The notes under the pieces: model-generated
Database searches by the model: none
What the model was told of the DNA's origin: nothing
The model's input: the letters and a program-made list of their open reading frames with translations, nothing else
Translations under genes and position numbers: made by a program
Part shown: positions 44,313 through 64,000 of the stretch, in pieces
Numbering within the stretch: position 1 is the stretch's first letter
How the letters are laid out: each line of letters begins with the position of its first letter
DNA from: an uncultured Thermoleophilia bacterium
GTDB lineage: Bacteria > Actinomycetota > Thermoleophilia > UBA2241
Direction: 5' to 3'
Length of the DNA stretch: 64,000 bases
NCBI GenBank assembly: GCA_963735345.1
Contig: CAVTKL010000013.1
Span: 193,130 to 257,129, forward strand

Positions 44313-44328
44313 GACCCGGAACCGCAGC

Positions 44329-45364: not shown

Positions 45365-45554
45365 GCGTCATTCCCTCTCTTCGTATCGAGGATGAGGCTC
45401 GTTGGCACGGAGCGTAGAGACCGGCGAGCAAGGGCGCCGCCAACACGAGGCAAAGGTTTGGCAAAGACCGGCGGCTCCCGAGTACACTGAGGGCGCCGAC
45501 CACCAAGGACTCGACCGATGGAGACCCATGCTTCCCAGCGCCGCCGGAGAGAAC

Positions 45555-46235: not shown

Positions 46236-47602
46236 CACGGCGCGTCCTTCTCAGTTACCTCACGATCACCGTGATCGTGCTGCTCGTCCTCGAGATCCCC
46301 CTGGCCATCTTCTTCCAGCAACGCGAGACCGACCGCCTCGCGGTGAACGTGGAACGGGATGCGACTGCTCTGGCGTCTCTCTACGAAGACGCGCTCGAGC
46401 GCCGCCTGTCACTCGACGCGCAAGCTGCCTCTGATTATGCCGCCCGCACCGGGGCCCGCGTCGTGGTCGTGGGACCGAACGGGCTCTCTCAGGTCGACAC
46501 CGGCGCCGCGATCGATCGCGACTTCTCCACGCGGCCCGAGATCCAGGAGGCACTCCGCGGACAACGCGCCACGGGGATGCGCCGCTCGGACACCCTCGGG
46601 ACGGACCTCCTGTACGTGGCCGTACCCGTTGCCTCCGGCGGGACGGTGCACGGCGCCATTCGTGTGACCCTCGACGCCAAGGACGTGAACGCCACCGTGC
46701 GCCGCTTCTGGCTTGGTCTGGCAGGCGTGGCGGCCGTCGTCCTGACGGCCATGGCCGGCATCGGCTGGGCGATCGCCCGCTCCGTGACCCGGCCGCTCCG
46801 TACGCTCCGCGACATGGCGGATCGGTTCGCCACCGGCGACCTCACCCCCACCGCCGCAGACCCCGACGCGCCCCCCGAGATCGCCGCCCTGGAGGCGACC
46901 CTGAATGCAATGGCGCATCGTCTCGACCAGCTTCTCGCCGAGCAACGTGCCTTCGTCGCCGACGCCTCCCATCAGCTGCGCACGCCACTCACCGCTCTCA
47001 GACTGCGCCTTGAGAACCTGCAGAGCAGCCAAACCACGCTCGAGGGTGCGGAAGACCTCGGCGCAGCGATCGAGGAGACGAACCGGTTGGCCCACCTCGT
47101 CGGCGACCTCCTGAGACTTGCGCGCGCCGAGCAGACCGCGGCCCCGGAACCGGCAGATCTCGCGGAGATCGCCCGTGACCGCGTCGATACGTGGTCGGCG
47201 GTGGCCGATGCTGCCGGCGTCAGCCTCGACTTCGTATCGCCGGCCGTGCCGGTGCTCGTGAGCGCGGTACCCACGGGCATCGAACAGATCCTCGACAACC
47301 TCATTGACAACGCGATCACGGCTTCACCACCGGGCGCGAGCGTCACCGTGACCGTCACGTCCGGTCAAGAGCACCATCACCTCACGATCGCCGATGCGGG
47401 ACCCGGGCTCAGCGACGAGCAGAAGGCCCGTGCGCTCGACCGATTCTGGCGTCTCGGGGGAGTCACACCGGGCACTGGTCTGGGACTCCCCATCGCCTGC
47501 GCCCTCGCTGTAGCCTCCGGGGGATCTCTTCGACTGGGTGACAGTCCGGCGGGCGGCCTCGCCGTCACGGTCGCCCTGCCGGTGGCCGCTGCCCGTCCTT
47601 GA
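46232..47602 (+). CDS. Sensor histidine kinase (TM-HAMP-HisKA-HATPase)
   Basis: GTGA overlap with the RR gene. ...FVADASHQLRTPLTAL... (H-box); ...DNAITASPPG...GTGLGLPI... Confidence 0.85.
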   Translation: MTRRVLLSYLTITVIVLLVLEIPLAIFFQQRETDRLAVNVERDATALASLYEDALERRLSLDAQAASDYAARTGARVVVVGPNGLSQVDTGAAIDRDFSTRPEIQEALRGQRATGMRRSDTLGTDLLYVAVPVASGGTVHGAIRVTLDAKDVNATVRRFWLGLAGVAAVVLTAMAGIGWAIARSVTRPLRTLRDMADRFATGDLTPTAADPDAPPEIAALEATLNAMAHRLDQLLAEQRAFVADASHQLRTPLTALRLRLENLQSSQTTLEGAEDLGAAIEETNRLAHLVGDLLRLARAEQTAAPEPADLAEIARDRVDTWSAVADAAGVSLDFVSPAVPVLVSAVPTGIEQILDNLIDNAITASPPGASVTVTVTSGQEHHHLTIADAGPGLSDEQKARALDRFWRLGGVTPGTGLGLPIACALAVASGGSLRLGDSPAGGLAVTVALPVAAARP

Positions 47603-49562: not shown

Positions 49563-51641
49563 TCAGCCGCGCACGAGCTCCAGGAAGCGCCTGGCGTCGA
49601 CATGCAGCGCCAACTGCCGGCGTGCCGGCAGGCTCGAGCGTTCGAAACGAGGTTTGCCGCTCAAGGTACTCATCTCGACGATGGCCTGCATGGAGCGCGC
49701 GCCGTGAATGTACTCGTCGATGGCAAGAAAGGCGCGCAGCACCCCTTCATCGATCTCGAGACGCGGCCCCTCTGCGTCGCCGCGCATCATCTGCGGCGCC
49801 CGGCGCGCGATCAGCGAGCGCAGCAACAGCGCCCGGCGCAGCGGCCAGGCGACGTCGGCGGGGCCCCGCCGGTTCGGGCCCGTGACGTCCACGTAGCCGC
49901 GCAGCCGGCTGACGAAGTCAGGCTTCTTCGCGGCGCGCTCGGCGCGCTCGTCTCCGTACGAGATGAAGTCCTCGAAACGCGCGACGGTGCCCCCGGCGAA
50001 AACGAAGATCGCGCCGCCCAGGGGATGGAAGCTCGCCCCGTCACGAAAGCGTCCGTCCTCCATAGGGGCGAGAAAGTGCTGGAGCCAGCCCAACGGCACG
50101 CCGTCAAGGGGTGCGTCGAACTCGTCCCAGAAGACCAGCGGCAGATCGCCTTCAAGAGCGACGTCGCGCACCTCGTGGAAGGCCAGCCCCAGGTCTGCCG
50201 CCGAGCGCAGCTGTGAGAGGTTGAACTCCAGGGTACGGAGCTGGCCGGAAAGCAGTACCGTGGCCAGCTGCCGAACGGCGAACGTCTTACCCGCCCCTGG
50301 AGGGCCGAACACGGCCACGGGCAGGGGCCGATAGACGGGGCCGCCGTGCAGCCTCTGCTGGATGTACTCCTCGAGGATGTTGCGCACGCTCCTCAGGCTC
50401 TGGATCTCGATCCTGTCGACAGAGGCCCACTCACCGACGGTCTCCACTGGGATGCCTGCCGGCAGGCTCGCGATCCCGCGTACCGCGGCGGCCGCGGCGA
50501 CCGCCGCGAGTTCCTCCTCGGCGTAGGTCTGCGCGAGGATGGAGGCGCCCGCAGCCGGCCGATAGGCGATGCTCGCGAACTGATCGGTGTCATCGACGAG
50601 CGCCCGAGCCACCACGTCGAACGGAAACGGCTCGGCGCGCGCCGTGAGATCGAAGTCCACCACGAAGCCTGTGATGTGAGCGGCGCGGGCGGCGGCGAGG
50701 CCGCGCCTGACGGAGTCGACCAGCGCGGCCTCGCCGGCCGTCGCCAGCCCCAAGGCCACGGCGGCGTCGATGCACTGCCCGTACGCCGCGCCGACGCCGG
50801 GGTGACGCTTGCCCCAGTCGCCTTCTTGTGACCGAGGGTCGAAGACGAGAGTGTCCTCCCCGTCGCGCTCGACGATCACGGCGCCGGCGGCGCCGACGAT
50901 GACGATGACGCGCCGCGCGCGCGAGACCGGATTGGCGCGGACCGCGACAAGGATCTCCTCCGTGAGTTGCTCCCAGGACAGCGCGTAGCTGACCTGCTCA
51001 CCCGTCTTGCGCAGCTCGTCGGACGAGGTGATGACGGTCAGCTTGTCGGCGTACTCATCGAGCAGCGTGTCGGCGAGCGCCGACCCGGCAAGCGGTGCCC
51101 CGGTCTGCCAGACGATGGAGCGCGGCTGCTTCGCCAGCAGTTCCTGCAGCCCGACAGGGTGATGACGGAAGCCCAATTCGTGGTCGACGATCATCAGCGT
51201 GTCGACAGTCTGCGGCGCCGGGACGCCTGCGGCGACCGGCGCCTCTCGTGCCGGATTGGTCCCCAGGAACTGGGCGATGCGCCAGGCGCGTGCGTCGCCG
51301 CCGCGTCTGCAATCCCGTTCGAACTGCCGGATGCTCGCGAACGTGTGCGTGTACCCGGGATGGAAAGGCGAAGCCAGCGCCCCGGCAGGCACCGCCGGCC
51401 CGACCACGAGCACGTCGCGCAGACCCGCCTCTGAGACGGCCGCGCGAAGGATCTCCGCGTGCGAGGCGGCGCCACCGCTGCTCGAAAGCGCACGGCACGT
51501 GTAATCGCCGCCCCACATCCAGATGAAGTCGACGGCGCCGCGACCCTCGTCGGCGGAGGACAGCAGCATCCAGTCGATGCTGAGGTCGCCGGTCACGGCG
51601 ATGGTGCGCGTCTGGCTGGGCATGGCATCAGCTCCACTCAT
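49563..51641 (-). CDS. AAA+ ATPase with a large (~480 aa) uncharacterised N-terminal domain (possibly a degenerate PfkB/ribokinase-like fold)
   Basis: Walker [16 protein letters not shown]; Walker [10 protein letters not shown]. The N-terminal region is not assignable. Start at MSGADAM or MPSQTRT. Confidence 0.6.
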
Positions 51642-51720
51642 CGGGGTCGGACTCACGGCAGTGTACCCGGCGTCATCGGGGTCGACACGAGCGACGCCGT
51701 CGATGACCGGCGTGCCTCGT

Positions 51721-53073
51721 TCATGGCCGCGCGTCGGCTTCGGCATAGGCCAGCTCGGGACGACCGGCTCGTCCGGTCCCGAGCGCATGCCTGGGCGCCA
51801 TGTCGCGGCTCGCGGCCGCGACGTCGCGGGCGGCGCGGAGGCGGCGCAGCGCAAGGCCGGCCGCGACCGCGGTGAGGACTGTGGCCACACCGCCCAGGGC
51901 CAAGGCCAGACGCACGCCGAACTGCGCCGCGACGAAGCCCGTCAGCGGGGCGCCGATCGGCGTCGAACCGAGGAAGACCATGGCCCACAACGCCATCACC
52001 CGGCCACGCATGGCGTCGCTGGAGTTGAGTTGCAGCAGCGAGTTGACGGTGGTCATGAAGAAGACACTGACAGCCCCCAGGGGCGCCACCAGGAGCATCA
52101 TGAGCGGCAACGACGGCGCCCAGGCGACGGCGACGAGACACACGCCGAAGGCCAGCGCGATGACCACGAGCTGACGGTAGCTGGGCCGATGCCGGGCGGC
52201 GGCGGCCAGGGCGCCGACGAGGGCGCCGCCGCCCATCGCGGTCATCAGAGCGCTGTAGCTGCCGGCGCCGCGGTGAAAGAGCTGCGCGAGGAGCGGCAGC
52301 GTGACTGTGAAGTTGTAGGCGAGCGCGCTGATCACGGCCACCATGAGCAGCGGGATGCGCAGCTCCCACGCCGCCCACGCGTAGTGGAAGCCGGCGCGGA
52401 TCTGGCCCTTGGCCCGGGGGAGCCGCGGCGCCGGATGCAGATCGGCGGGGCGCATGACCCAAAGAGCGGCCAGCACGGCGAGAAAGGACGCCGCGTTGAG
52501 CAGGAATGTCCATGACATGCCGACCGTGACGATCAGGAGGCCGGCGATCGCAGGCCCCACCATGCGTGACGCATTGACGATGACGCTGTTGAGGCCGACG
52601 GCGTTGGTCAGGGCATCGGGGCCGACCATCTCCCCGACGAAGCTCTGCCGAGCCGGGGCGTCGATCGCGTTGATGGTCCCCATGAGCAGCGCGAGCAGCC
52701 ACACCATCCAGAGTTGCGCCGAGCCACTCGCGACCAGGAGTCCCAGCGCCAGGGCCTGCGCCGCGAAGCTGGCTTGGGTGAACAGCAGCAACCGGCGCCT
52801 GTCGAAGCGGTCCGCCAGAAGTCCGCCGACGGAGCCCAACACCAGCACCGGTCCGAACTGGAGGGCGGCGGTGATGCCGAGGTCGAGGGCGCTGCCGTGA
52901 AGCTGGAAGAGCACGAGCGCGTTCTGAGCGATCGCCTGCGTCCAGGTGCCGCACTGAGAGACCGTCTGGCCGAAGAACCAGAGACGGTAGTTGCGCGTGC
53001 GCAACGAACCGAAGAGACGCCCGACGAGGACCCGTGGACCCCGGGTGAGTCGCGCGAGGCCGAGGCTGCTCAA
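51721..53073 (-). CDS. MFS transporter, 12-TMS (EntS/MFS_3-like)
   Basis: 450 aa, 12 hydrophobic segments; ...GLLADRFDRRRLL... Confidence 0.8.
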   Translation of the reverse strand: MSSLGLARLTRGPRVLVGRLFGSLRTRNYRLWFFGQTVSQCGTWTQAIAQNALVLFQLHGSALDLGITAALQFGPVLVLGSVGGLLADRFDRRRLLLFTQASFAAQALALGLLVASGSAQLWMVWLLALLMGTINAIDAPARQSFVGEMVGPDALTNAVGLNSVIVNASRMVGPAIAGLLIVTVGMSWTFLLNAASFLAVLAALWVMRPADLHPAPRLPRAKGQIRAGFHYAWAAWELRIPLLMVAVISALAYNFTVTLPLLAQLFHRGAGSYSALMTAMGGGALVGALAAAARHRPSYRQLVVIALAFGVCLVAVAWAPSLPLMMLLVAPLGAVSVFFMTTVNSLLQLNSSDAMRGRVMALWAMVFLGSTPIGAPLTGFVAAQFGVRLALALGGVATVLTAVAAGLALRRLRAARDVAAASRDMAPRHALGTGRAGRPELAYAEADARP

Positions 53074-53552
53074 GGTTCGTCCTCGAGCAGCTGCTCGAGG
53101 ATCGGCAGAGCGTCGCGCAGCACGGCGAGCTGCCCAGCGTCGAGCGTGCGCAAGCGTTGGGCAAGGTAGGCCGTCTTGCGGGTGCGCGTGCGGCAGAGGG
53201 CGCGGCGCCCATGCGCCGTAAGACTGATGCGGGCGATGCGGCGGTCGACGGCGTCCGCCGCGCGCCGCACCAGGCCATGCTCCTCGAGCGCGGCGACCAT
53301 GCGCGTCACGCTCGGCGGGGTGACCATCTCGTGAGCCGCAAGCTGCCCCAAGGTCATCGACCCGTGAAGCTCGATGCTGGCGAGCGCGGAGACGAGAGAA
53401 GGACTCAGATCATCGCCGGCCTGGCGACGAAGTCGTCGCGCCAGGCGGCCCAGGACGAGGCGCAAGCGCGCCGCAAGCTCAGGATCGGCGCCGGGAAGCG
53501 ACATCATTCCCGCCGGCGCCGTCGCAGTCCTCTTCTCCTGTGCCCTCTTCAC
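53070..53552 (-). CDS. MarR-family transcriptional regulator
   Basis: ...LSPSLVSALASIELHGSMTLGQLAAHEMVTPPSVTRMVAALEEHGLVRRAADAVDRRIARISLT... Confidence 0.8.
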   Translation of the reverse strand: MKRAQEKRTATAPAGMMSLPGADPELAARLRLVLGRLARRLRRQAGDDLSPSLVSALASIELHGSMTLGQLAAHEMVTPPSVTRMVAALEEHGLVRRAADAVDRRIARISLTAHGRRALCRTRTRKTAYLAQRLRTLDAGQLAVLRDALPILEQLLEDEP

Positions 53553-53781
53553 GAAAGATAGTTTACCACACTAACCATCTAAGCGGGCGAAGCCCGGCGG
53601 GGACGAGACCCACCTCTGCCTCCCGCACCGCGCCCTCCTGAGCCGGCCGCCGCTGTGGGGTTCGCTCGCCCCCGCTCACGCGCGGGGGCGGCTACGCACT
53701 ATCATAGGAAGCAGACCAGCGAATGGGAACAGATCGCGGGCGACGTGGGCGATCTGGTCCGGGGCGAAGGAGACGGCAGCG

Positions 53782-54558
53782 GTGGACATCAAGGACTTCA
53801 CAATGGGCTGCTTCTCCCTCGAGGGCAAGAACAGCATCGTGACCGGCGGCAACACGGGACTCGGGTGCGCGTTTGCCCTGGCGCTCGCCAAAGGCGGCGC
53901 CAACGTCTTCGTCCCGAGCATCATCGACGACGACGGCTCCACCCGGGAGATGATCGAGGCCGAGGGCGTCCGCTACGAGTTCATGAAGACCGACATCACG
54001 GCGCCGGGCGCCCCCGCGCAGATCGTCGACGCCTGCGTGGACAAGCTCGGTTCACTCGACATCCTCATCAACAGCGCGGGCATCTGCCCCCTCGCCGGCG
54101 TCCTCGACTTCGGCCGTCCACAGTGGGATGCGACGGTCGCCGTCAATCTCACCGCCGCCTTCGAGATGGGCCACGAGGCGGCCAAGAGGATGATCCCTCA
54201 GGGCAGTGGCAAGATCATCAACATCTGCTCGCTCTTCTCCTACCTCGGCGGTCAGTGGTCGGCGGCCTACGCGGCCACCAAGCACGGCCTCGCCGGCTTC
54301 ACCAAGGCCTACTGTGACGAACTCGCCCAGTACAACGTCCAGGTCAACGGCATCGCCCCCGGCTACTACGCGACTGAGCTCACGACGGCGACGCGCAGCG
54401 ACCCGGAGACCAACAAGCGCGTGCTCGACCACATCCCGGCGGAGCGCTGGGGCGAACCTCAGGATCTGATGGGCGCGGTGGTCTTCCTCGCCAGCCGGGC
54501 ATCGGATTACGTCAACGGCCACGTCTTGGTGGTGGACGGCGGCTACCTCGTGCGCTAG
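53782..54558 (+). CDS. Short-chain dehydrogenase/reductase, KduD-like (2-dehydro-3-deoxy-D-gluconate 5-dehydrogenase family)
   Basis: LEGKNSIVTGGNTGLGCAFALALAKGGANV...NSAG...YAATKHGLAGFTKA... Confidence 0.8.
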   Translation: MDIKDFTMGCFSLEGKNSIVTGGNTGLGCAFALALAKGGANVFVPSIIDDDGSTREMIEAEGVRYEFMKTDITAPGAPAQIVDACVDKLGSLDILINSAGICPLAGVLDFGRPQWDATVAVNLTAAFEMGHEAAKRMIPQGSGKIINICSLFSYLGGQWSAAYAATKHGLAGFTKAYCDELAQYNVQVNGIAPGYYATELTTATRSDPETNKRVLDHIPAERWGEPQDLMGAVVFLASRASDYVNGHVLVVDGGYLVR

Positions 54559-54598
54559 CGAAAGCCGCCGCACAGCACGGAAAGAGAGCAACGACGCG

Positions 54599-56037
54599 AT
54601 GTCGGGTAAGTACATCATCGGCGTGGACGGGGGCTCCCAGAGCTCGAAATTCGTCATCTTCGATCTTGAGGGAACCGTCGTCTGCCAAGGCCGGCAGACC
54701 CTGCGCCCCATGAGCCGCCCCCGCTATGGGATCGTGGAGCACCCAGACGACGACCTCTGGGACTCGATCGTGACGGCGAGCCGGCAGGCCATGGCCAAGT
54801 TCACCGGCGACCCGAGAGACATCGTCGCCGTCGGGCTGTGCACGATCCGCTGTGAGCGCGCCTTCCTCAAGGCTGACGGGTCGCTGGCGGCGCCGGTCAT
54901 GAGCTGGATGGACAGCCGCGCCTACCGGCCGTATGTGCAGGAGAACCCCGAGACCGCCTATGTGACCACGTCGTCGGGGTACATCACCCACCGCTTCACC
55001 GGACGCTTCCGCGATTCCGCCGCCAACAACATCGAGGGGCAGTGGCCCATCGATACCGACACCTGGCAGTGGAGTGAGGATCCCGCGACCCTCGCGCGCT
55101 GGAACATCCCCCGGGAGATGCTCTTCGAACTGCAGATGCCGGGAGACATCGCGGGGTACGTGACCCCGGAGGCCGCCGTCGCGCTGGGCATTCCCGCAGG
55201 GCTCCCCGTGGTCGCCACCGCGAACGACAAGGCGACCGAGGCCCTGGGTTCCGGGGCCCTCGACGAGACCACGGCGCTGATCTCTCTGGGCACGTACATC
55301 TCCGCGATGGTGCACGGGCACGAGAACCGCGAGGCGCCCGTCGATTTCTGGACGAACTTCGCCTGCATCCCCGGCAAGTACCTCTACGAGAGCCACGGCA
55401 TCCGCCGGGGGATGTGGACGCTCACCTGGTTCCTGGACCTTCTGGGTGAGGAGTTCGCGGACGCCGCGGCCGCCAAGGGGATCTCCAGAGAGCTGTACCT
55501 CGAGCGCGAGGCGGAGAAGGTCGCCCCGGGCAGCGACGGCCTGATGACCGTTCTGGACTGGCTCGCCCCGGACGACAAGCCCTTCCGCAAGGGCGTGATG
55601 ATCGGGTTCGATGCGCGCCACACCAGAGGCCACGTCTGCCGCTCGATCCTTGAAGCTATCGCCCTGACGATGAAGAACTACGTCGACACGATGTGCGAGG
55701 AGCTCGGCATCACCCTCGAGCAGATCGTCATCTCGGGGGGCGGCGCCGGCAGCGAGTTGTTCATGCGCATCTTCGCGGACGTCTTCGAGATCCCGGACGT
55801 CGCGCAGCGTGGCCAGCGGTGGGGCGAGCCTCGGCGCGGCCATCTGCGCGGCGGTGGGAACGGGTGATCTACCCGGACTTCCCGACCGCCGTGGCCCTGA
55901 TGACGAAGCCTCGCGAGTCGTTCGCCCCTGACGCCGCCAACACCGATGTGTACCTGCGGATGAACGAGACGGTCTACCAGACGATCAGCACCGCCACCGA
56001 TGACCTCCTCGAGCGCTCCTACCCGATCTTCCACTGA
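54599..56037 (+). pseudogene. FGGY-family carbohydrate kinase with two +1 frame changes within ~60 nt near the 3' end (~55797 and ~55857)
   Basis: MSGKYIIGVDGGSQSSKFVIFD...; the conserved C-terminus ...RSVASGGASLGAAICAAVGTG / VIYPDFPTAVALMTKP... is spread over three frames. Confidence 0.7.
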
Positions 56038-56050
56038 AAAGGATCACCTC

Positions 56051-57494
56051 ATGGACCTGAGCAGAGCCGCCCTCGTCGAGAGGCCTCCAGCGCATCGCCG
56101 GAGCGGAGAACGTCATCACCGACGAGACCGTGCTCAGGGAGAGCAGCATCGACAACTTCCGCAAGCTGGAGCACATCTTCGGCGTCTACACCCGGCCGCT
56201 GCCGGCCGCCGTGGTGATGGCGCAGAGCACGGCGAAGGTGGCCGAGATCCTCGCCTTCGCCGACGAACACCGCGTCAACGTGATCCCTCGCACGGGAGCG
56301 ACGGCGACCGAGGGCGGTCTTGAGTCTGTCGTGGCCGACTCCATCGTCCTCGACGGCTCGGCCATGGATCAGATCCTGAGCATCGACGCCTGCAACATGC
56401 AGGCCACGGCGCAATGCGGCGTGCCGCTCCAGGTGCTGGAGGACCGCGCCCGCGAACAGGGGCTCACCACGGGGCACTCTCCGCAGTCGAAGCCCGTGGC
56501 CCACATGGGCGGCCTCGTGGCCACCCGCAGCATCGGCCAGTTCTCGACGCTCTACGGCGGCATCGAGGACATGGTCGTGGGCCTCGAGGCCGTCTTCCCC
56601 GGCGGTCAGGTGACGCGCATCAAGAACGTCCCCCGCCGCGCGGCGGGCCCCGACATCCGCCACGTCGTCATCGGCAACGAAGGCGCCCTGTGCTTCATCA
56701 CCGAGGTCACGGTGAAGCTCTTCCCGTACTTCCCCGAGAACAACACGTTCCTCGGCTGGACCTTGAAGGACATGAAGACCGGCTTCGACGTCTTGCGCGC
56801 GGTCATGGTGAGCGGCTACAAGCCGTCGGTGGCGCGCGTCTACGACCCGGGCGACGCCGGCCTGCACTTCTCCCACTTCGCCGCGGAGGACGACTGCGTC
56901 CTGCTCTTCATGGTCGAGGGACCGGCCGGCATCGTCACGGCGACGGCCGAGGGCATCGCGGCCATCGTCGCAAACCATCCGGAGTGCAAGCAGGTCGACA
57001 GCGAGTACATCGCCACCTGGTTCAACGACCTGTGCTGGGGCCCTGAGAAGATCACCCAGGAGGACGAGCGCATCCGCCAGACCCACAACGTCAATCGCAC
57101 CACCGAGATCTCGGCCGGCTGGAGTTGCATCAACGACATCTACCAGGCCGCCCGGGCGCGCATCGTCAGCGAGATCCCCGACATCACCATGGCCGGCGGC
57201 CATTCCTCCCACAGCTACATCAACGGCACCAACATGTACTTCAACTACTTCTACAACGTCGTCGGCTGCGGGCCGGAGGAGGAGGTCACCAAGTACTACC
57301 TCCCGATCATCGGCATCATCTGCGAGGAGACACTCAAGCGCGGCGGCTCGATCGTCCACCACCACGGCATCGGCAAGGCGCGCACCCCGTGGGTCAAGGA
57401 GGAGTACGGCTCCTCGTACTGCGTCCTCGAGACGCTCAAGCACGCCTTCGACCCCAACGGCATCATGAACACGGGGACGATCATCCCCAGGTGA
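56051..57494 (+). pseudogene. FAD-linked oxidase (GlcD/D-lactate dehydrogenase-like, FAD_binding_4) with a 1-nt frameshift near 56075
   Basis: MDLSRAALVER is in one frame and LQRIAGAENVITDETVLRESSIDNFRKLEH...VIPRTGATATEGG... in the next. An extra C in aggcctcc explains the shift. The rest of the 454-aa frame is intact. Confidence 0.7.
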
Positions 57495-57499
57495 GCGCC

Positions 57500-58322
57500 A
57501 TGAGGATCCTCGTCTCGTTCAAGGTCACCCCCGACTTCGAGGCGCTGCGCGAGGCGGATTGGGCTGCCGGAGCGGCGGACGGCGTGCGGACCCGCTACGT
57601 CCGCCGTATCCTCAACTGCTTCGACGAGAGCGCTCTGGAGCTGGCGCTGCGCTTGTCCGAGGCGCTCGCCGGTCAGGGAGACGCGACGGACCTCAGCGCC
57701 TTGTCGGTCGGCGGCAGAGAGACCGATCCGTACCTCAAGACGCTGCTGGCGCTGGGCTACGGACGGGCGACCCGGGTGGAACCTGAGGCCGCCCTGGACT
57801 TCGCCCCTGCCGTCACGGCAGAGCTCATCGCGCGCTACGTGCAGCAGATCGACCACAGCGATCTCCTGCTGGTCGGCTGCCGCAGCGGCCCCGGAGACGG
57901 CGGGACCATGCCCTTCCGGGTGGCCGAGAACCTGGGCTGGCCGTGCCTGACGCAGGTGGTCGACATGGCGCCGCTGGCTGACGACCGCGTCCGTGTGGCC
58001 TGCATGGTCGAGGAGGGTCTTCTGCGGGCGACCATCCGGCCGCCTTGCGTGCTGGCCGTCGGCAACGCCGTCGTGTCGCGCCTGCGCGTGCCGACGCTGA
58101 CGGATCGGCTCGCGCAACGGGGAAAGCCCATCACCGTCCTGTCGGCCGGGGATCTCGGCGTCGACATCGCCGAGGAGCTGAGCCGCGAGACCTGTGCGCT
58201 CACGGGACTCGACGGTGATCGATCGCGCCCGTCCAGGCGTCGTCGTCGATGGGGAGACGCCGCGCGCGAAGGCGCAGTCCCTCTTCGCGGCGCACCTCAA
58301 GACCAGGATCGAGAAACGATGA
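57500..58322 (+). pseudogene. Electron transfer flavoprotein beta-subunit-like protein (divergent EtfB) with a frameshift near 58190
   Basis: MRILVSFKVTPDFEAL...; after ...AEELSRET the C-terminus ...VIDRARPGVVVDGETPRAKAQSLFAAHLKTRIEKR continues in another frame and ends in an ATGA overlap with etfA. Confidence 0.65.
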
Positions 58323-59287
58323 GGTCCGCCGCGATCCTGGACGGGACGCTCGGCACGGCGGCCCGGCAGGCCCAAGCCCTCGCGGGCTTTCTGCGCGAGG
58401 GCCTCAGCGGCGACCCGGTCGCGGAGACGCTGATCCTCTACCACGACGAATGCGACCGGACACGGCTCGTGGAGCTGGCGCCGACCCGCGACGTGCGGCT
58501 CGTCAAGACGACGGCGCGGCGCCCCGACCGGATCGTCGAGATCCTCGCCGCGGCCGCGACGGACGAGCAGACCGAGTTCCTTCTCTTTGCAGGCGGCGCC
58601 GCGGGAACGGAGACGGCCACGCGCGTCGCCTGTCGCGCCGGCGGCGCCGTGCTGACAGACGCTTTGAGCATCGAGGTGCGGCCGGGTCTTCTGGTCGGCC
58701 GCAAGAACGTCTACTCGAATCACCTCGTGGGGCGCTTTGAGCTCTCGGCGCGCCCCCGGTGCGTCAGCATCGACGCCGGCTGGAGCGACGCGGGACGTCC
58801 CGCCAGCCTCGAACACCGCGTCCTCTCCGACACCGACGCGACAGACGGGGCGGGCCCGGCGCCGTTTGAGGACCTGGAGCTCGTTGCCGCGCCCTCGAAT
58901 GGGGATCTCGCGGAGAGCCGGTTCCTCGTGGTCGCGGGATACGGCGCCGGCAGGCGCGAGCACGCAGACCGCATCGCGTCGGCGGCCCGGAGCATGGGTG
59001 CCGCCTTCGGCGTCACGCGCCCCGTGGCCATGAACGCCTGGGCTCCGATGGACCGGCTGATCGGCGTCTCGGGCGTCCGCACCGCCCCTGATCTGTGCGT
59101 CGTCGTGGGAGCCTCGGGCGCGCCGGCCTTCTTCTGGGGCATCGAGAAGGCCGGGTTCATCGTCGCGATCAACCCGGATGCGCAGGCGCCGATCGTCCGC
59201 AACGCGGATGTGGCGGTCCTCGACGACGGCGTGGCCATCATCGAGGAGCTGGCGCGGATCGTCGGCGAGGACCGCGGGGACCCATGA
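58319..59287 (+). CDS. etfA: Electron transfer flavoprotein alpha subunit (EtfA), copy 1
   Basis: ...VAGYGAG...AFGVTRPVAMNAWAPMDRLIGVSGVRTAPDLCVVVGASGAPAFFWGIEKAGFIVAINPD... (FAD-binding C-terminal domain). Confidence 0.8.
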   Translation: MRSAAILDGTLGTAARQAQALAGFLREGLSGDPVAETLILYHDECDRTRLVELAPTRDVRLVKTTARRPDRIVEILAAAATDEQTEFLLFAGGAAGTETATRVACRAGGAVLTDALSIEVRPGLLVGRKNVYSNHLVGRFELSARPRCVSIDAGWSDAGRPASLEHRVLSDTDATDGAGPAPFEDLELVAAPSNGDLAESRFLVVAGYGAGRREHADRIASAARSMGAAFGVTRPVAMNAWAPMDRLIGVSGVRTAPDLCVVVGASGAPAFFWGIEKAGFIVAINPDAQAPIVRNADVAVLDDGVAIIEELARIVGEDRGDP

Positions 59288-60705
59288 CTCGGCAGGTGAT
59301 GCACGAGCTCGACGAGCGGTACCAGACCTACCTGTGCGACGAGTCCCGCCTGCTCGGCGCCGCGGAGAGCGTCTCGTTCCCGGAGCGTGAAGACGAGATC
59401 GTCGCGGTCATCGCCGAGATGCGGCGCGAGCGGGTCTCTGTCACCGTCCAAGGCGGGCGGACAGGCCTCGCCGGCAGCGCCGTACCGCTGAGGGGACACG
59501 TCATGAACCTCTCCCGCATGAACCGGGCCGAAGCACCCCAGCGCCGCAAGGACGGCACGTGGGTCATGACGGTCGAGCCCGGAACGACCCTGATGGACCT
59601 CCGCCGCGCGATCGAGGGGGCGAAGGTCGAAGCCCCGCTGTTCTGGCCCCCCGACCCGACCGAGACCACGGCGACCGTCGGCGGCGTGGTCTCCTGTAAC
59701 GCCCGGGGGCTCACCGCCATGCGCTACGGCAGCACCCGGGATCATGTCGAGGCGCTGCGCCTGGTGTCGGCGGATGGCGCCGCGAAAGCGGTCGTCCGGG
59801 GAGAGGGGGCGTTTCAGCCAGACTGCGGTCTGGGTGCCCTCGATCTCGCCGTCGGCGGCGAGGGCATGTTCGGGGTCATCACGGCGCTCACGCTGCGCCT
59901 CGTCCCGAAGCCGCCGGAGATGTGGGGGATCTGCTTCTTCTTCGGCGGTCGGCAGAGCCTCTGCGCCTTCGCCGACCGCCTCGCGAGCGTCCCCCCGCAC
60001 GCGGGTGCGAGCCTCGCCGCCATGGAGTACCTCGACCGGCGAGCCATCACCATGGTCGAGGAGCGCAAGACCACCGTCACCAGCATCCAGGGCCTTCCCG
60101 CCGTCGACCCGGCGGCGCTGGCCATGGTGTACGTCGAACTGCACGGGGACGACGAGGAAGCGGTCGCGGAGCTCGCCACAAGCCTCATGGAGATCGCCGT
60201 CGAGGCCGGCGCCGATCCCGACAGGGCCTGGGCGGTCTCCGGCGAGGCGGAGGTCGAGCGCCTGCGCGCGTTCAGGCATGCGGCGGCCGAAGCGGCCAAC
60301 CTGCTGATCGAGCGCGCCCGCCGGTCCGATCCGTCGATCGTGAAGTTGAGCACGGACATGAGCCTGCCCGGACTGCCGTTCTCCGCCGCCCTCGATCTGT
60401 ACGAGTCTGGTCTGGCGCGGGAGGAGCTTGACGCCTGTGTGTTCGGCCACCTCCGCGAGAACCGCCTCAACGTGAACCTGCTGCCCAGGGATGCGGACGA
60501 GTACCTCCGGGGACGGCGTCTCATCGCAGAATGGGCCGCGCAGGTGATCGCCCTGGGGGGGCAGCCGGTGAACGAACACGGGGTCGGCAAGCTGAAGAAG
60601 GACCTCGTGGCCGAGGGCTCCGCGGGAACGAGATGGCGTGAGTTGCGCCGCTGCAAGACGGCCCTCGACCCCGAGGAGTTCTGGAACCCCGGCAACATGT
60701 TCTGA
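59284..60705 (+). CDS. FAD-linked oxidase (GlcD/D-lactate dehydrogenase-like), copy 2, intact
   Basis: ATGA overlap with etfA. ...VSVTVQGGRTGLAGSAVP... (FAD_binding_4); ...HGVGKLKKDLVAE... in the C-terminus. Confidence 0.8.
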   Translation: MTRQVMHELDERYQTYLCDESRLLGAAESVSFPEREDEIVAVIAEMRRERVSVTVQGGRTGLAGSAVPLRGHVMNLSRMNRAEAPQRRKDGTWVMTVEPGTTLMDLRRAIEGAKVEAPLFWPPDPTETTATVGGVVSCNARGLTAMRYGSTRDHVEALRLVSADGAAKAVVRGEGAFQPDCGLGALDLAVGGEGMFGVITALTLRLVPKPPEMWGICFFFGGRQSLCAFADRLASVPPHAGASLAAMEYLDRRAITMVEERKTTVTSIQGLPAVDPAALAMVYVELHGDDEEAVAELATSLMEIAVEAGADPDRAWAVSGEAEVERLRAFRHAAAEAANLLIERARRSDPSIVKLSTDMSLPGLPFSAALDLYESGLAREELDACVFGHLRENRLNVNLLPRDADEYLRGRRLIAEWAAQVIALGGQPVNEHGVGKLKKDLVAEGSAGTRWRELRRCKTALDPEEFWNPGNMF

Positions 60706-60723
60706 GGCGAGGAGACCAGCACG

Positions 60724-61527
60724 GTGGTGCGGATAGCGGTGTGCGTGAAACAGGTGCCGGCCCGGTCGGAGGGGATGATGGATCCCGCGACGGGGACGAT
60801 CCGTCGCGAGGGCCTCGCGGCCGTCATCAACTCCTGCGACCTGCCGGCCATCGAGACCGCCCTGCGCGTGAAGCAGGCGGTCACCGCGGAGGTCGACGTC
60901 TTCACCATGGGACCCATGAAGGCGGCCGCCGTGGTCCGGGAGGCCCTCAGCATGGGGGCGGATCGCGGCTATCTGCTGAGCGATCCCCGCTTCTCGGGCG
61001 CCGACGTGTACGCCACCGCCTACACCCTGGTCCAGGGCATGCGCACGGTCGGCGCCTACGATCTGCTCGTCTGCGGGAAGCAGACCACCGACGGCGGAAC
61101 GTCACAGGTGGGCGGGACGATCGCCCAGATGCTGGGCGTACCGCACATCGGCCGGGTGACGAAGCTGGTCGAGGCCGACGGGCAGGGGGTCACGATCGTG
61201 CAGGAGCTTGAGCGGGAGCTCCTGACTCTGCACGTCGGCTTCCCCTGCGTCGTCTCGGTCGAGCCCGGCATCTTCACGCCGCGCCTGCCCAGTCTGAAGT
61301 CGAAGCTGGCCGCCGGCAGGCAGCAGGTGACGGTCCTGTCACTGGAGGATCTCAGCGACACAGACCCGACACACTACGGCGTCAAGGGCTCTCCGACCAA
61401 GGTCGAGAAGGTCTACCCGGCGGCGCTCACGCCACGCCGCGACCTGAGCGCCATGGACGCCGAGGCGGCCACCGACCTCATCCTCAGTCAGGTACGGCGC
61501 TTGACGCATCCCGGGGGCACCAGATGA
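60724..61527 (+). CDS. etfB: Electron transfer flavoprotein beta subunit (EtfB/FixA), copy 2
   Basis: GTG start; VRIAVCVKQVP... Confidence 0.85.
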   Translation: MVRIAVCVKQVPARSEGMMDPATGTIRREGLAAVINSCDLPAIETALRVKQAVTAEVDVFTMGPMKAAAVVREALSMGADRGYLLSDPRFSGADVYATAYTLVQGMRTVGAYDLLVCGKQTTDGGTSQVGGTIAQMLGVPHIGRVTKLVEADGQGVTIVQELERELLTLHVGFPCVVSVEPGIFTPRLPSLKSKLAAGRQQVTVLSLEDLSDTDPTHYGVKGSPTKVEKVYPAALTPRRDLSAMDAEAATDLILSQVRRLTHPGGTR

Positions 61528-62600
61528 CGCCGCCGCCGCTGCCACCGCCGCCTGCACCGGCGGCGCTCCACGGCCTAGACGACTTGGACGAGTGGAAGCG
61601 CCAGTGGAAGCACATCCTGATATACCTCGAGTGCCGCGATGGGGCCGTCCACCCCGCGAGCCTTCAGGTGCTGAGCAAGGCCCGTGAGCTCGCGCTCGAG
61701 GCCGGCTTCGAGGTCCACGGCATCGCGATCGGCGAGGATCGCGAGCTCCTGCGCGCGCTGCTCGCTCCCTATCCGCTGGAGAGCGTGTACCTTTGCCAGA
61801 CCAAGGAAGGGCACTTCCTGACGGAGGCGCACAGCGAACCCTTCATCCGGTGCGTGCGGCGACTCCGACCCTCAGTCGTCCTCCTCGCCGCCACCCCTGT
61901 GGGCAAGGCCATCGCTTCACGCGTGGCGACCGCGCTCGGCAGCGGCCTGACCGCCGACTGCACCGGTCTTGGGATGCGGGAGAACACCGATCTGGTGCAG
62001 GTTCGCCCCGCCTACGGCGGCGACATCATGGCGCGCATCGTCACGACCCGCTCGCGGCCTCAGTTCGCCACGGTGCGCCCGGATGGCAAGCCGGCGCGGG
62101 CCGCGCCGACCCATCCGGGCGTCGAGTTCGTGCTCGAGGAGTCCGACTCGTCGCGCCAGACGGCCGTGACGCTGCTCAAGGCGGAGCCGCGACGAGAGAC
62201 GCACGACATCGCGCGCTCGCAGATCCTCGTCGTGGCAGGCAAGGGGCTGCGTCACTTGGAGGACCTCGACGTACTCCGCGAGTTGGCCGAGCTCCTGGGC
62301 GGCGAGCTGGCCGCGACCCGGGGCATCGTGGAGCGGGGATGGCTGCCCGCCGACAGACAGATCGGGCTGTCGGGAAAGAGCGTGACCCCTGAGCTACTGA
62401 TCGCCTGCGGGGCCTCGGGGTCGGTGCAGTTCCTGGAGGGAGTACGGCAGGCGAAGACCATCATCGCGATTGACTCGGACCCCGACGCGCGCATCCTCGC
62501 CGTCGCCCACTACCCCATCCTTGGCGACCTCTACGAGATCGTGCCGGCGCTGATCGCGCGACTCAAGACGAATGGCGAGCGCCTTGACGCTGCGCCCTGA
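61524..62600 (+). CDS. etfA: Electron transfer flavoprotein alpha subunit (EtfA/FixB), copy 2
   Basis: ...VVAGKGL...LAELLGGELAATRGIVERGWLPADRQIGLSGKSVTPELLIACGASGSVQFLEG... Confidence 0.85.
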   Translation: MTPPPLPPPPAPAALHGLDDLDEWKRQWKHILIYLECRDGAVHPASLQVLSKARELALEAGFEVHGIAIGEDRELLRALLAPYPLESVYLCQTKEGHFLTEAHSEPFIRCVRRLRPSVVLLAATPVGKAIASRVATALGSGLTADCTGLGMRENTDLVQVRPAYGGDIMARIVTTRSRPQFATVRPDGKPARAAPTHPGVEFVLEESDSSRQTAVTLLKAEPRRETHDIARSQILVVAGKGLRHLEDLDVLRELAELLGGELAATRGIVERGWLPADRQIGLSGKSVTPELLIACGASGSVQFLEGVRQAKTIIAIDSDPDARILAVAHYPILGDLYEIVPALIARLKTNGERLDAAP

Positions 62601-62781
62601 GCCGCGCACCCAGCCCTTGGCGCCGTTTGCGCCGGTCCGCTCATCGAAACGCCGGCGTGCCTAGCGGTCATCAAGCCCTTCGTAGAGGGCTTCGATCTGC
62701 GGCTCGGTACGCGGGATGGTTGGACGGCTGCATGCGGAAAGGCGGGCGTGTCCGACATCGACGAGGCTGGCCAGAAGTCTG

Positions 62782-63264
62782 CTAGATGAAGAGGTTGACG
62801 TTGGCCTCGTCGGCCTCGCCCAGGTAGGAGGCCACGCCGGCATACTCGAGACCTGGGATCATCTCTTCTTCCTTGAAGCCCAGGATGTCCATGGAGAGGG
62901 TGCAGGCGACGAACTTGACGCCCTGCTCGCGCGCGGTCCGGAAGAGCTCCTCGAGCGACATGCCGCCGACGTCCTTCGTCGCCTTCCTCATCATGGGAGC
63001 GCCCATGCCGGCGAAGTTCATCTTCGACAGACCGAGCTTGCGCGTGCCCTTGGGCATCATCTTGCCGAACATCGACTGCAGCGTGCTCTTCTTGGCCTCC
63101 GACTCGACCTTCCCCGCCTTGCGAAGGATGTTGAGGCCCCAGAACGTGGCGAAGATGGTGACGTCGTCGCCCATCGCGGCGGCGCCGTTGGCGATGATGA
63201 GCGCCGCCATCACTCGGTCGAAGTCCCCGCTGAACAGGATGATCGTCTTCTTGGTCGTATCCAC
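62782..63264 (-). CDS. DsrE/DsrF-like (DrsE_2, COG2210) family protein
   Basis: MDTTKKTIILFSGDFDRVMAALIIANGAAAMGDDVTIFATFWGL... Confidence 0.6.
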   Translation of the reverse strand: MDTTKKTIILFSGDFDRVMAALIIANGAAAMGDDVTIFATFWGLNILRKAGKVESEAKKSTLQSMFGKMMPKGTRKLGLSKMNFAGMGAPMMRKATKDVGGMSLEELFRTAREQGVKFVACTLSMDILGFKEEEMIPGLEYAGVASYLGEADEANVNLFI

Positions 63265-63310
63265 CCCAGCACCTCCAGTGATGCTCAGTCGTGGGCCGGC
63301 CGTCCCGGGC

Positions 63311-63991
63311 TCAGGACGCGTAGGCCTCGCGCAAATAGTACGAAATGTCTTTGAAGCGCATCGTCTCGCCGGCCGCTTGGCTCAGGTTCACGAAGCACAT
63401 CGGGCACATGGTCACGGCGTCGGGTGCCGCGACGCGGAGCTGCGCGACGCGCTTCCCCGCGTTGGCGGCCGCTTTGGCCGGGTAGAGCGACTCGATGGGG
63501 CCACCGCAGCACCAGGTCTGCCGACCCGCGTTCTCCGGGTCGCGGATGGTGACCCCGGTGGCCGCCAGCAGCTCACGCGGCTCGTCGACGATGCCCTCGT
63601 AGCGGGCGAAGACGCACGAGTCGTGAAAGGCGACGTCGCCGGAGAGCGTCGTGCTCGGCGTCAACCCCTTCTCGGCCAGCACCTCCAGGTAGCTGCGCAC
63701 TTCGACGTCGTAGCCCTTCAGGATCTTGGGGTAGACGCTGCGCAGCATGGTCGTGGTGTGCGGGTCGATGGTGATCACGGTCTTGACGTTGTGCTTCTTG
63801 AACATCGCATGGACGCGCCGCGCATGAGCGGCGACCACTTCGTCGGCGCCCAGGTCGTAGGCGAGGGCGCCCGAGTACAGGTCGTCCTCGTAGAGAGCGC
63901 CGAACTCGACGCCGGCCTTGCGCAACAGGTGGACGACGTTGATCGGCACCTGGCTGTAACGAGCGCGCTCCGCTGCCGACGGGCGCGCCAT
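63311..63991 (-). CDS. CCG-domain (cysteine-rich) Fe-S oxidoreductase, HdrB/GlcF/LutA-like
   Basis: ...FHDSCVFARY...TWCCGGPIESLY...CPMCFVNL... is a CCG-domain Cys pattern. Confidence 0.6.
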   Translation of the reverse strand: MARPSAAERARYSQVPINVVHLLRKAGVEFGALYEDDLYSGALAYDLGADEVVAAHARRVHAMFKKHNVKTVITIDPHTTTMLRSVYPKILKGYDVEVRSYLEVLAEKGLTPSTTLSGDVAFHDSCVFARYEGIVDEPRELLAATGVTIRDPENAGRQTWCCGGPIESLYPAKAAANAGKRVAQLRVAAPDAVTMCPMCFVNLSQAAGETMRFKDISYYLREAYAS

Positions 63992-64000
63992 GAAGGCCGA

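Follow-up and report, generated by a model that had tools for sequence, protein, structure and literature searches.

A 64,000-nt stretch of DNA from an uncultured Thermoleophilia bacterium (contig CAVTKL010000013.1; hereafter the window, in whose numbering all positions are given) contains, at 53782-62600 and entirely on the plus strand, genes for a short-chain dehydrogenase/reductase (SDR), an FGGY-family kinase and two successive sets of an FAD-linked oxidase followed by the beta and alpha subunits of an electron-transferring flavoprotein (ETF), in the order that a first-pass annotation had described. The window has a G+C content of 68%, and its nearest relatives are Thermoleophilia metagenome-assembled genomes (MAGs). 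We refer to oxidase 1 (ox1), EtfB1 and EtfA1 as unit 1 and to oxidase 2 (ox2), EtfB2 and EtfA2 as unit 2; the subunit pairs are ETF1 and ETF2, respectively. ETF-coupled flavin dehydrogenases have a central place in anaerobic energy conservation, and only a handful of ETF partner enzymes are known.

The SDR (53782-54558; 258 aa; Pfam adh_short_C2, 1e-51) resembles KduD and gluconate 5-dehydrogenase. It is followed by the FGGY-family kinase (54599-56037; Pfam FGGY_N and FGGY_C), which has 478 aa once two extra bases, at 55797 and 55866, are taken out, and by ox1 (56051-57494; Pfam FAD_binding_4 and FAD-oxidase_C), an FAD enzyme similar to alkyl-dihydroxyacetone-phosphate (alkyl-DHAP) synthase, or AGPS, of 480 aa without an extra base at 56082. 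EtfB1 (57500-58322; Pfam ETF; 273 aa without an extra base at 58211) and EtfA1 (58319-59287; 322 aa; Pfam ETF_alpha, 1e-18) are both atypical ETF subunits. Unit 2 consists of ox2 (59284-60705; 473 aa), a D-lactate-dehydrogenase/GlcD-like FAD enzyme with the same two Pfam domains as ox1, of EtfB2 (60724-61527; 267 aa; Pfam ETF), an Lct/Bcd-type, group-2-like ETF beta, and of EtfA2 (61524-62600; 358 aa; Pfam ETF and ETF_alpha), an Lct-type ETF alpha. Gaps of 40, 13, 5 and 18 nt separate SDR from kinase, kinase from ox1, ox1 from EtfB1 and ox2 from EtfB2, and ATGA stop/start overlaps join EtfB1 to EtfA1, EtfA1 to ox2 and EtfB2 to EtfA2; the start of ox2 thus overlaps the end of unit 1. No terminator-like site was found on the plus strand within 53782-62600, where a promoter/terminator scan is uninformative at 68% GC, and an Rfam scan of 53000-64000 gave no family match. 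Because the spacing is tight, stops and starts overlap and the gene set is kept across two phyla even where its order is rearranged, we agree with the earlier reading of these genes as a single operon, as judged from co-occurrence and spacing.

Two dissimilar oxidase-ETF units

The first-pass annotation took both oxidases to be of the GlcD/LctD type and saw in their juxtaposition with etfB and etfA the signature of ETF-coupled hydroxy-acid dehydrogenases such as LctBCD. This stands for the ETF of unit 2, which is nearest to LctB and LctC. It does not extend to the oxidases, one of which is AGPS-like while the other is no orthologue of LctD, nor to EtfA2, which is without the ferredoxin domain of LctC.

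The best PDB matches of ox1 are alkyl-DHAP synthases (2e-40), followed by GlcD, LctD and LDHD at 1e-27 to 1e-19. When ox1 is aligned to the guinea-pig (4BBY) and Dictyostelium (2UUU) enzymes, its ARVYDP falls on Arg419/R352 and its HHHGIGK on His615-617; HSSHSY...NMYF coincides with the H-x-S-H-x-Y...Y578/Y508 segment. The histidine triplet, which in AGPS we take to be a catalytic feature, stands where hydroxy-acid dehydrogenases have a metal-binding E-H pair. In AGPS, Tyr508 removes the pro-R proton from C1 of acyl-DHAP to leave a carbanion that attacks N5 of the oxidised FAD, and a flavin-DHAP iminium then releases the acyl group; neither R352 nor Y508 can be dispensed with, and oxidised flavin is required although there is no net redox change (PMC3509576). 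The alignments thus point to ox1 as an AGPS-like flavoenzyme with an intact catalytic set, resembling AGPS in its predicted active site but not in size or context. Many metagenome homologues of ox1 are more than 80% identical to it.

The partner of ox1 is unusual in both subunits. EtfB1 finds its best PDB matches, the Paracoccus and human ETFs, only at about 1e-14, the best match of EtfA1 is at 6e-16, and no NCBIfam ETF model reached its cut-off with either. We tested for bifurcation with the EtfB stretch that binds the bifurcating FAD (b-FAD), DGDTAQVGP, as quoted in PMC9232219. EtfB1 has PGDGGTMPF at this place, and its clostridial orthologues have G(D/S)N..TP. Likewise, EtfA1 reads SGAPAFFWG where other ETFs have SGAxQ(H/F)xxG, and the A-F pair is kept in the clostridial orthologues. 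The description of EtfB1 as atypical is therefore borne out. ETFs fall in five groups, of which group 2 alone is bifurcating (PMC6085437). By the features tested, ETF1 appears to fit neither group 1 nor group 2, and it would represent a deep, undescribed ETF lineage.

ETF2 gives a different picture. The best PDB match of EtfB2 is LctB (1.3e-68, 45% identity), followed by C. difficile EtfB, CarD, A. fermentans EtfB and a chain of Thermotoga EtfABCX; all five (1e-68 to 6e-34) come from Lct, Bcd, Car or EtfABCX-type complexes or ETFs known as bifurcating, whereas the Methylophilus, Paracoccus and human ETFs match at 6e-16 or more weakly. EtfA2 behaves alike. Its best match is LctC (1.9e-71, 39% identity), with an alignment that begins at LctC residue 68. 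Only one cysteine lies in its first 70 residues, which leaves no cysteine-rich ferredoxin domain, and its SGSVQF corresponds to the SGAVQF of LctC (the Q-F signature). The b-FAD stretch of EtfB2, DGGTSQVGG, agrees with the reference at six of nine positions, and the clostridial DGDTAQVSG at seven of nine. Since ETF2 is nearest to the ETFs of known bifurcating complexes and canonical ETFs are far weaker matches, we assign it by similarity to the bifurcating group 2, with three motif positions unorthodox. By the motif check proposed for both ETFs, ETF1 lacks the b-FAD motif; EtfB2 agrees with it at six of nine positions and has bifurcating-type closest relatives. The label FixA-like given to EtfB2 has to be dropped: it scores 104 bits with the NCBIfam FixA model against a cut-off of 219, LctB is its best match and Bcd-type proteins come next, and the FixA-type chain from Thermotoga is only fifth.

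The substrate of ox2 was to be read from homology, and no assignment emerges. Its PDB matches (LDHD, 2e-29 and 106 bits; 3PM9, 104 bits; LctD, 2e-27 and 99 bits; GlcD, 3e-26) leave it about equidistant from LDHD, 3PM9, LctD, GlcD and D2HGDH, over a range of 1e-29 to 1e-22. The E-H of NEHGVGK is kept. In the window lineage, Asn (GHLRENRLN) replaces the second His of the GH..GN.H motif; that His is retained in the clostridial orthologues (GH..NH[LI]H) and in one 74%-identical relative. The residues of both motifs are, we assume, the metal ligands of D-2-hydroxyacid dehydrogenases. The two units are not copies of each other. A duplication was considered and dropped in view of the low identities between ox1 and ox2 (about 29-35% over 49-87 aa), EtfB1 and EtfB2 (24%), and EtfA1 and EtfA2 (29%), and the divergence of the two ETF pairs noted at first pass is confirmed by the same figures.

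The two genes upstream of ox1 belong to large families without falling into any named member. The SDR reaches 317 bits with the NCBIfam KduD model NF005390 (cut-off 369) and 271 bits with TIGR01832 (cut-off 339); no kduI, kdgK or eda genes, and no glp or xyl genes, occur in its context. Even from the frameshifted open reading frame (ORF), the kinase matches FGGY_N (7e-21) and FGGY_C (5e-20), which places it in the FGGY carbohydrate kinase superfamily, where its intact full-length orthologues have 476-478 aa. It remains below the cut-off of every NCBIfam kinase model (GlpK, XylB, LsrK, FucK, RhaB, AraB, GntK), the best being XylB with 130 bits against 380.

Distribution of the gene set and integrity of the window copy

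Using ox1 as the anchor and one genome per GTDB species, we detected at least 495 Actinomycetota stretches encoding an ox1 relative. The best 80 were examined, all from Actinomycetota-labelled MAGs (Thermoleophilia, Acidimicrobiia/Ilumatobacteraceae and 'Actinomycetes') except one labelled Bifidobacterium sp.; 67 loci could be evaluated for context. The SDR and kinase genes lie directly upstream of ox1 in all 67. ETF1 follows ox1 directly in 26, and ox2 stands beside the module in one of the 67, as well as in L001, a 112-kb ENA contig with 95.8% nucleotide identity to the window over 15 kb.

A metagenome scan anchored on an ox2-family alignment yielded 80 loci, 60 with an ox2 at least 41% identical and 20 below 41%. 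Among the 60, there was enough upstream flank in 41, while 42 were scored for a downstream ETF2 and 28 had flanks wide enough for neighbour counts. The genes ox1-EtfB1-EtfA1 lie directly upstream of ox2 in 41 of 41 loci (EtfA1 alone in 49 of 49), in gut, fermenter and sediment metagenomes as well as in cultured Clostridia, and EtfB2-EtfA2 lie directly downstream in 26 of 42. The 20 distant loci are ordinary oxidase-EtfB-EtfA units, with ox1 in just one. Given 41 of 41 against 1 of 20, the tandem arrangement does not look coincidental: the presence of this ox2 subfamily appears to imply that of unit 1, but not the reverse.

Close relatives of ox2 are few in Thermoleophilia, and the next are found in Clostridia at 41-50% identity. 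The full eight-gene set occurs on a contig with a [Clostridium] hylemonae protein (L082), in Anaeromicrobium sediminis (L084), where the gene order is identical to that of the window, in Caproiciproducens faecalis (L085), and on two further contigs, L086 and L087. The ox2 proteins of [Clostridium] hylemonae DSM 15053 and A. sediminis are WP_006444274.1 and WP_095132308.1, respectively. One-to-one orthologues in three Clostridia are 62-76% identical for the SDR, 57-63% for the kinase, 61-65% for ox1, 36-44% for EtfB1, 34-37% for EtfA1, 45-47% for ox2, 46-51% for EtfB2 and 46-49% for EtfA2. From these distributions we infer a core of SDR, kinase and ox1 to which ETF1, ox2 and ETF2 would have been added stepwise, the full set being typical of anaerobes.

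The 28 wide-flank clostridial loci contain the SDR in 26 cases, the kinase in 25, a BCCT or OpuA-type transporter in 25, a GlpP antiterminator of the glycerol-3-phosphate type in 23, a major facilitator superfamily (MFS) transporter in 21, a DUF89/ARMT1 phosphatase in 17 and SurE in 16. In Thermoleophilia (59 loci), a beta-hydroxyacid dehydrogenase gene lies directly upstream of the SDR gene in 21, a non-Pyl MttB-family methyltransferase is encoded on the same strand within 1.6 kb in 19 and anywhere in the locus in 24, and a dimethylamine methyltransferase (Pfam Dimeth_Pyl, Pyl-type MtbB) is present in 20. The dimethylamine methyltransferase genes, about 5 kb upstream of SDR-FGGY-ox1, carry an in-frame TAG in 18 of 18 examined (L012:805-2244 on the minus strand, L002:703-2118 and 16 further Thermoleophilia loci between L003 and L054). 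The TAG falls between Pfam positions 353 and 355, and the frame continues in the 13 loci where the downstream ORF was recovered. This would be the signature of a pyrrolysine-encoding MtbB in Actinomycetota MAGs (pylTSBCD genes were not part of the search). On one clostridial contig, the cluster is flanked by a weak match to a Zn-dependent phospholipase C (L086:15183-15833) and by a large secreted metallophosphoesterase/5'-nucleotidase (L086:1-1820), which faintly suggests a connection with phospholipid head groups.

Is the operon of the window intact? Four single extra bases interrupt it, at about 55797 and 55866 in the C-terminal part of the kinase, at 56082 in codon 11 of ox1 and at 58211 in EtfB1; unit 2 is free of them. 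The earlier statement that the first unit is frameshifted and the second intact is accurate as to the bases, with the amendment that two of the four lie in the kinase; the implied decay is unsupported. L001 likewise carries all eight genes. Its kinase (478 aa), ox1 (480), EtfB1 (273) and EtfA1 (322) are intact, and its ox2 is disrupted by two extra bases of its own. All four extra bases are absent both from L001 and from L090, a JGI short-read contig with 92.9% nucleotide identity to the window in which the kinase is also intact. The window differs from L001 by 58 scattered indels in 15 kb, mostly of one base, and from L090 by five indels in 6.2 kb, of which four are the frameshift sites and the fifth lies in the kinase-ox1 spacer. 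Once the four bases are removed, every operon gene is a clean ORF, and comparison with L001 gives dN/dS values of 0.27 for the SDR, 0.17 for the kinase, 0.15 for ox1, 0.32 for EtfB1, 0.39 for EtfA1, 0.43 for ox2, 0.25 for EtfB2 and 0.29 for EtfA2. All eight genes are under purifying selection.

Frameshifts elsewhere in the window were sought by Pfam tests on overlapping same-strand ORFs, a plot of G+C at third codon positions being too noisy for counting. The housekeeping gene nnr, for bifunctional NAD(P)H-hydrate repair (YjeF_N and Carb_kinase domains; 31257-32850, minus strand), is likewise split over two frames by a single-base frameshift: the ORF at 31636-32850 stops at position 33 of the Carb_kinase profile and that at 31257-32021 resumes at position 44. 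Since two independent relatives lack the extra bases, dN/dS is 0.15-0.43 and nnr is also split, the four frameshifts are most probably assembly errors rather than signs of decay. Frameshifts in long-read MAGs should be compared with relatives before pseudogenes are called. A natural EtfB-EtfA fusion at 57500-59287 was considered and rejected: the 720-aa ORF arises because the extra base at 58211 joins the two frames 37 codons ahead of the EtfB1 stop; read in the other frame, EtfB regains a normal C-terminus and the ATGA overlap, and the genes are separate in relatives.

Divergently placed upstream, as the first-pass annotation had noted, are a MarR-family regulator and an MFS transporter, both on the minus strand. 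The regulator (53070-53552) scores 94 bits with the NCBIfam model of Rv0880-family HTH regulators (cut-off 220), and its L001 orthologue matches Pfam MarR. The transporter (51721-53073; a 450-aa ORF of the MFS_3 type) is the second gene of the pair and overlaps the marR stop by 4 nt; its L001 orthologue is 99% identical and matches PF05977 and PF07690, and it has no homology at 1e-5 to the MFS proteins of the clostridial clusters. A 229-nt spacer separates marR-mfs from the SDR gene. Within it, at 53726-53760 and 22 nt upstream of the SDR start, lies an inverted repeat, GGAACAGATCGC-N11-GCGATCTGGTCC, with 12-nt arms that are 92% complementary; it is conserved only in part in L001 and is a candidate operator.

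Synonymous divergence between the window (51721-62600) and L001 varies about 15-fold by gene, with dS at 0.015 in the MFS and MarR genes, 0.03-0.07 from ox1 to EtfB2, 0.19 in the kinase and 0.23 in EtfA2, which suggests a recombination mosaic within the species cluster. An intact gene for a 775-aa protein, weakly matching STAND/AAA NTPases, lies at 49563-51890 (minus strand) of the window; in L001 this region has about 30 one-base indels, which makes L001 the noisier assembly there. L001 has no counterpart of some 4.4 kb of the window (42858-47316), a strain-level insertion or deletion whose genes specify a membrane protein resembling ferric reductases, an ApbE flavin transferase and an OmpR-type response regulator; three further ORFs in it have no Pfam match. 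Downstream of the operon, 62782-64000 (minus strand) carries a DsrE2-like gene (PF13686, 2e-59) and the C-terminal CCG domain of an iron-sulfur protein similar to HdrD/GlpC/TfrB, which runs off the window. Such proteins can be ETF- or quinone-linked oxidoreductases. Synteny with L001 ends at window position 62611, and the HdrD/GlpC/TfrB-like gene is not conserved beside the operon.

A proposed route through a ketol phosphate

What could this gene set do? We infer a catabolic pathway that runs through a DHAP-like ketol phosphate and is encoded by all eight genes as one intact, functional operon; as a whole, this is our best explanation, and we put the chances for and against it at about equal. 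The substrate would be a small compound ending in -CHOH-CH2OH, a 1-substituted glycerol-type diol, probably with a quaternary-ammonium or betaine-type head group. The SDR would oxidise its secondary alcohol to a ketol (-CO-CH2OH), a step proposed because the nearest families, KduD and gluconate 5-dehydrogenase, convert -CHOH-CH2OH to -CO-CH2OH. The FGGY kinase would then phosphorylate the terminal hydroxyl to give X-CH2-CO-CH2-O-P, a C1-substituted DHAP of the substrate class of AGPS. Ox1 would apply the AGPS machinery to this compound: the tyrosine base would take a proton from C1, the carbanion would add to flavin N5, and the C1 substituent X would be expelled or oxidised, with electrons passing to ETF1 where the step is oxidative. 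A product of the D-2-hydroxy-acid type would be oxidised by ox2, which is found mainly where the gene set is complete, and in anaerobes the electrons of ox2 may pass through ETF2 to NAD+ with the help of ferredoxin, in an Lct-like confurcation.

Several neighbours are in keeping with such a route. GlpP, at 23 of the 28 clostridial loci, suggests a glycerol-phosphate-like effector. DUF89 enzymes act on ketose phosphates; NCBIfam describes the family as damage-control phosphatases. The BCCT and OpuA transporters of Clostridia and the MttB and MtbB methyltransferases of Thermoleophilia hint independently at a methylated-amine head group. The side-chain metabolism of corticosteroids was also considered, whose ketol chemistry fits; the betaine transporters and the soil distribution do not. 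A more specific version holds that ox1 is a new kind of ETF-linked flavoenzyme that cleaves the bond to the C1 substituent (C-O, C-N or C-O-P) of a substituted DHAP, which the SDR and the kinase would make from a quaternary-ammonium 1-substituted glycerol, with glycerophosphocholine or the deacylated head group of a betaine lipid as candidate substrates. In this precise form the idea is speculative, and we think it rather unlikely to hold in every part.

A number of observations count against the proposed pathway. No ETF gene stands beside ox1 at 41 of the 67 Actinomycetota loci, so that ox1 may do without a dedicated acceptor, for instance in a redox-neutral exchange of the AGPS type; similarly, ox2 occurs without ETF2 at 16 of 42 loci. 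The locus in the window has no BCCT/OpuA, GlpP or MttB genes and none of the other Thermoleophilia neighbours, only MarR and an unrelated MFS transporter. In the window lineage, where the second metal His of ox2 is lost and EtfB2 departs from the b-FAD motif at three of nine positions, unit 2 may have changed its function. The four frameshifts may be very recent real mutations. An AlphaFold model of ox1, built on an alignment of 12 sequences about 80% or more identical, has a mean confidence (pLDDT) of 49, at which a C16 channel or the size of the pocket cannot be read. Finally, full-text literature searches aimed at the cluster or its parts found no publication that describes it and no experimental report on any member.

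How else might the locus be explained? The strongest competing accounts stay close to glycerol or to AGPS. In one, the operon serves plain oxidation of glycerol or glycerol-3-phosphate: the FGGY protein would be a divergent kinase for glycerol (or dihydroxyacetone), and the SDR would act as a glycerol dehydrogenase, ox1 as an ETF-linked glycerol-3-phosphate dehydrogenase and ox2 as a D-lactate dehydrogenase that clears a methylglyoxal bypass, the betaine-type transporters being incidental. Glycerol kinases are indeed among the best solved matches of the kinase, GlpP is frequent in Clostridia, and the family of ox1 binds a DHAP moiety. Yet the kinase reaches 84 bits against a GlpK cut-off of 590, and the catalytic residues of AGPS act at the ketone C1 rather than at the alcohol C2 (PMC3509576). 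Transporters at 25 of 28 loci and the methyltransferase neighbours in Thermoleophilia are also hard to call incidental, and we consider this account unlikely. We judge equally unlikely that ox1 performs a redox-neutral substitution or hydrolysis at C1 that releases X to leave DHAP, with ETF1 not accepting pathway electrons but only setting or rescuing the flavin's redox state, or serving ox2. AGPS itself sets the precedent in its want of net redox change and its need for oxidised flavin (PMC3509576), and the many loci with ox1 but no adjacent ETF, the 16 of 42 ox2 loci whose sole ETF is ETF1, and the unusual flavin site of EtfA1, with A-F for Q-H, all agree with it. On the other hand, ETF1 lies between ox1 and ox2 wherever ox2 is present, and its occurrence at 26 of 67 loci that lack ox2 argues that it is not simply the partner of ox2.

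The remaining alternatives deny either the distinctness of the two units, their connection or their integrity. That both are Lct-like dehydrogenases of lactate, glycolate or 2-hydroxyglutarate with bifurcating or confurcating ETFs would fit their common order of oxidase, EtfB and EtfA and the similarity of unit 2 to LctB and LctC; it is very unlikely, since ox1 is AGPS-like with HHH in place of the metal-binding E-H, EtfB1 lacks the b-FAD motif and its weak best solved matches are non-bifurcating ETFs, and ox1 is always accompanied by an SDR and a sugar-type kinase for which a hydroxy-acid dehydrogenase has no need. Decay of the operon in this strain, with kinase and unit 1 as true pseudogenes and unit 2 alone working, would account for the bunching of four frameshifts in 2.4 kb (55797-58211) while the remaining 6.4 kb are free of them. 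It is highly improbable: L001 and L090 are intact at all four sites, each is a one-base insertion of the kind that separates the assemblies throughout, nnr is broken likewise, and the affected genes have dN/dS values of 0.15-0.32. Unit 2 on its own would moreover have no precedent, because unit 1 lies upstream in 41 of 41 loci. A chance or recent juxtaposition of an actinobacterial SDR-FGGY-ox1(-ETF1) module with a horizontally acquired, functionally unlinked Lct-like lactate module would explain why ox2 is so rare beside the module in Actinomycetota and why its close relatives are few in Thermoleophilia before identity drops to 41-50% in Clostridia. The overlap of the ox2 start with the EtfA1 stop speaks against it, as does the single ox1 among the 20 distant Lct-like loci, and it is largely refuted by the constant presence of unit 1 upstream of close ox2 relatives, which leaves it extremely improbable.

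The operon adds an AGPS-family enzyme as a putative ETF partner and is a natural example of one operon with two different ETFs. Its gene set is present in cultured gut bacteria and other Clostridia ([Clostridium] hylemonae DSM 15053, Caproiciproducens faecalis, Anaeromicrobium sediminis) and in soil actinobacteria; with cultured members and at least 495 Actinomycetota stretches, the pathway thus lends itself to experiment and is common ecologically. If the substrate is of the choline or betaine type, it bears on gut methylamine metabolism. Should ox1 cleave the C1 substituent as suggested, compounds of the choline or betaine type would be catabolised by a route not recognised before. It would be widespread among Clostridia of the human gut and Actinomycetota of soil, and its operon would encode two mechanistically different ETFs, one of the bifurcating type.

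Relation to known enzymes and complexes

The enzymes at the start of the proposed route are related to sugar-acid and sugar metabolism at a distance. KduD and gluconate 5-dehydrogenase are the best family matches of the SDR, which differs in scoring below the curated cut-offs and in lacking any pectin or hexuronate context. GlpK, XylB and LsrK are the best family matches of the kinase, with glycerol kinases among the best solved structures, and all of them remain below their curated cut-offs.

With AGPS (AGPS/ADPS; 4BBY, 2UUU; EC 2.5.1.26), ox1 shares both Pfam domains, the arginine of RVYDP, the tyrosine segment and the HHHG(I/V)GK loop. AGPS proteins have 584-658 aa against the 480 of ox1, whose match begins only at residue 205 of the guinea-pig and 135 of the Dictyostelium enzyme, and ox1 therefore lacks the N-terminal region of AGPS, which together with an AGPS-only domain forms the gated channel for C16 chains. 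Ox1 has no ether-lipid genes nearby and is instead accompanied by genes for ETF, SDR, sugar-type kinase, transporters and phosphatases (67 of 67 and 41 of 41 loci). It occurs in anaerobic Clostridia and in Actinomycetota.

The canonical group 1 ETFs of Paracoccus, human and Methylophilus are the top solved matches of EtfB1, at the 1e-14 level, and have the same two-subunit architecture. At the segment compared above, the two group 1 EtfB sequences, of Paracoccus and human, carry DNDMNATGQ or DDDCNQTGQ, and EtfB1 shares one of nine positions with them; this segment presumably binds AMP in group 1. Beside the flavin, group 1 EtfA has Q-H, which we take to be typical of the group (among the sequences compared here, Q-H was observed only in C. 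difficile EtfA), and EtfA1 has A-F instead. Finally, a group 1 ETF is a general acceptor, whereas ETF1 appears to be dedicated to one operon.

For ETF2, the relevant systems are bifurcating. The ETFs of Bcd-EtfAB and CarCDE (5OL2, 4KPU, 6FAH) are the second- to fourth-best matches of EtfB2 (1e-46 to 1e-41), and the EtfA proteins of C. difficile and A. fermentans have no ferredoxin domain, as is the case for EtfA2. Their partner is an acyl-CoA dehydrogenase, whereas that of ETF2 would be a dehydrogenase of the VAO/GlcD family. In this respect unit 2 is closer to the confurcating lactate dehydrogenase Ldh-EtfAB (LctBCD) of A. woodii (7QH2; PMC9232219), in which an FAD dehydrogenase of the same superfamily accompanies EtfB and EtfA. 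Among solved structures LctB and LctC are the nearest to EtfB2 and EtfA2, the Q-F signature is common to both systems, and six of nine b-FAD positions agree. The two also differ. Unit 2 has the gene order dehydrogenase-EtfB-EtfA; EtfA2 lacks the N-terminal ferredoxin domain of LctC, with its C(x)17CxxCxxC motif and [4Fe-4S] cluster; and ox2 is no orthologue of LctD, being no closer to it than to LDHD or GlcD and lacking, in the window, the second metal-ligand histidine. Unit 2 never stands alone, always following an AGPS-like enzyme and a second ETF.

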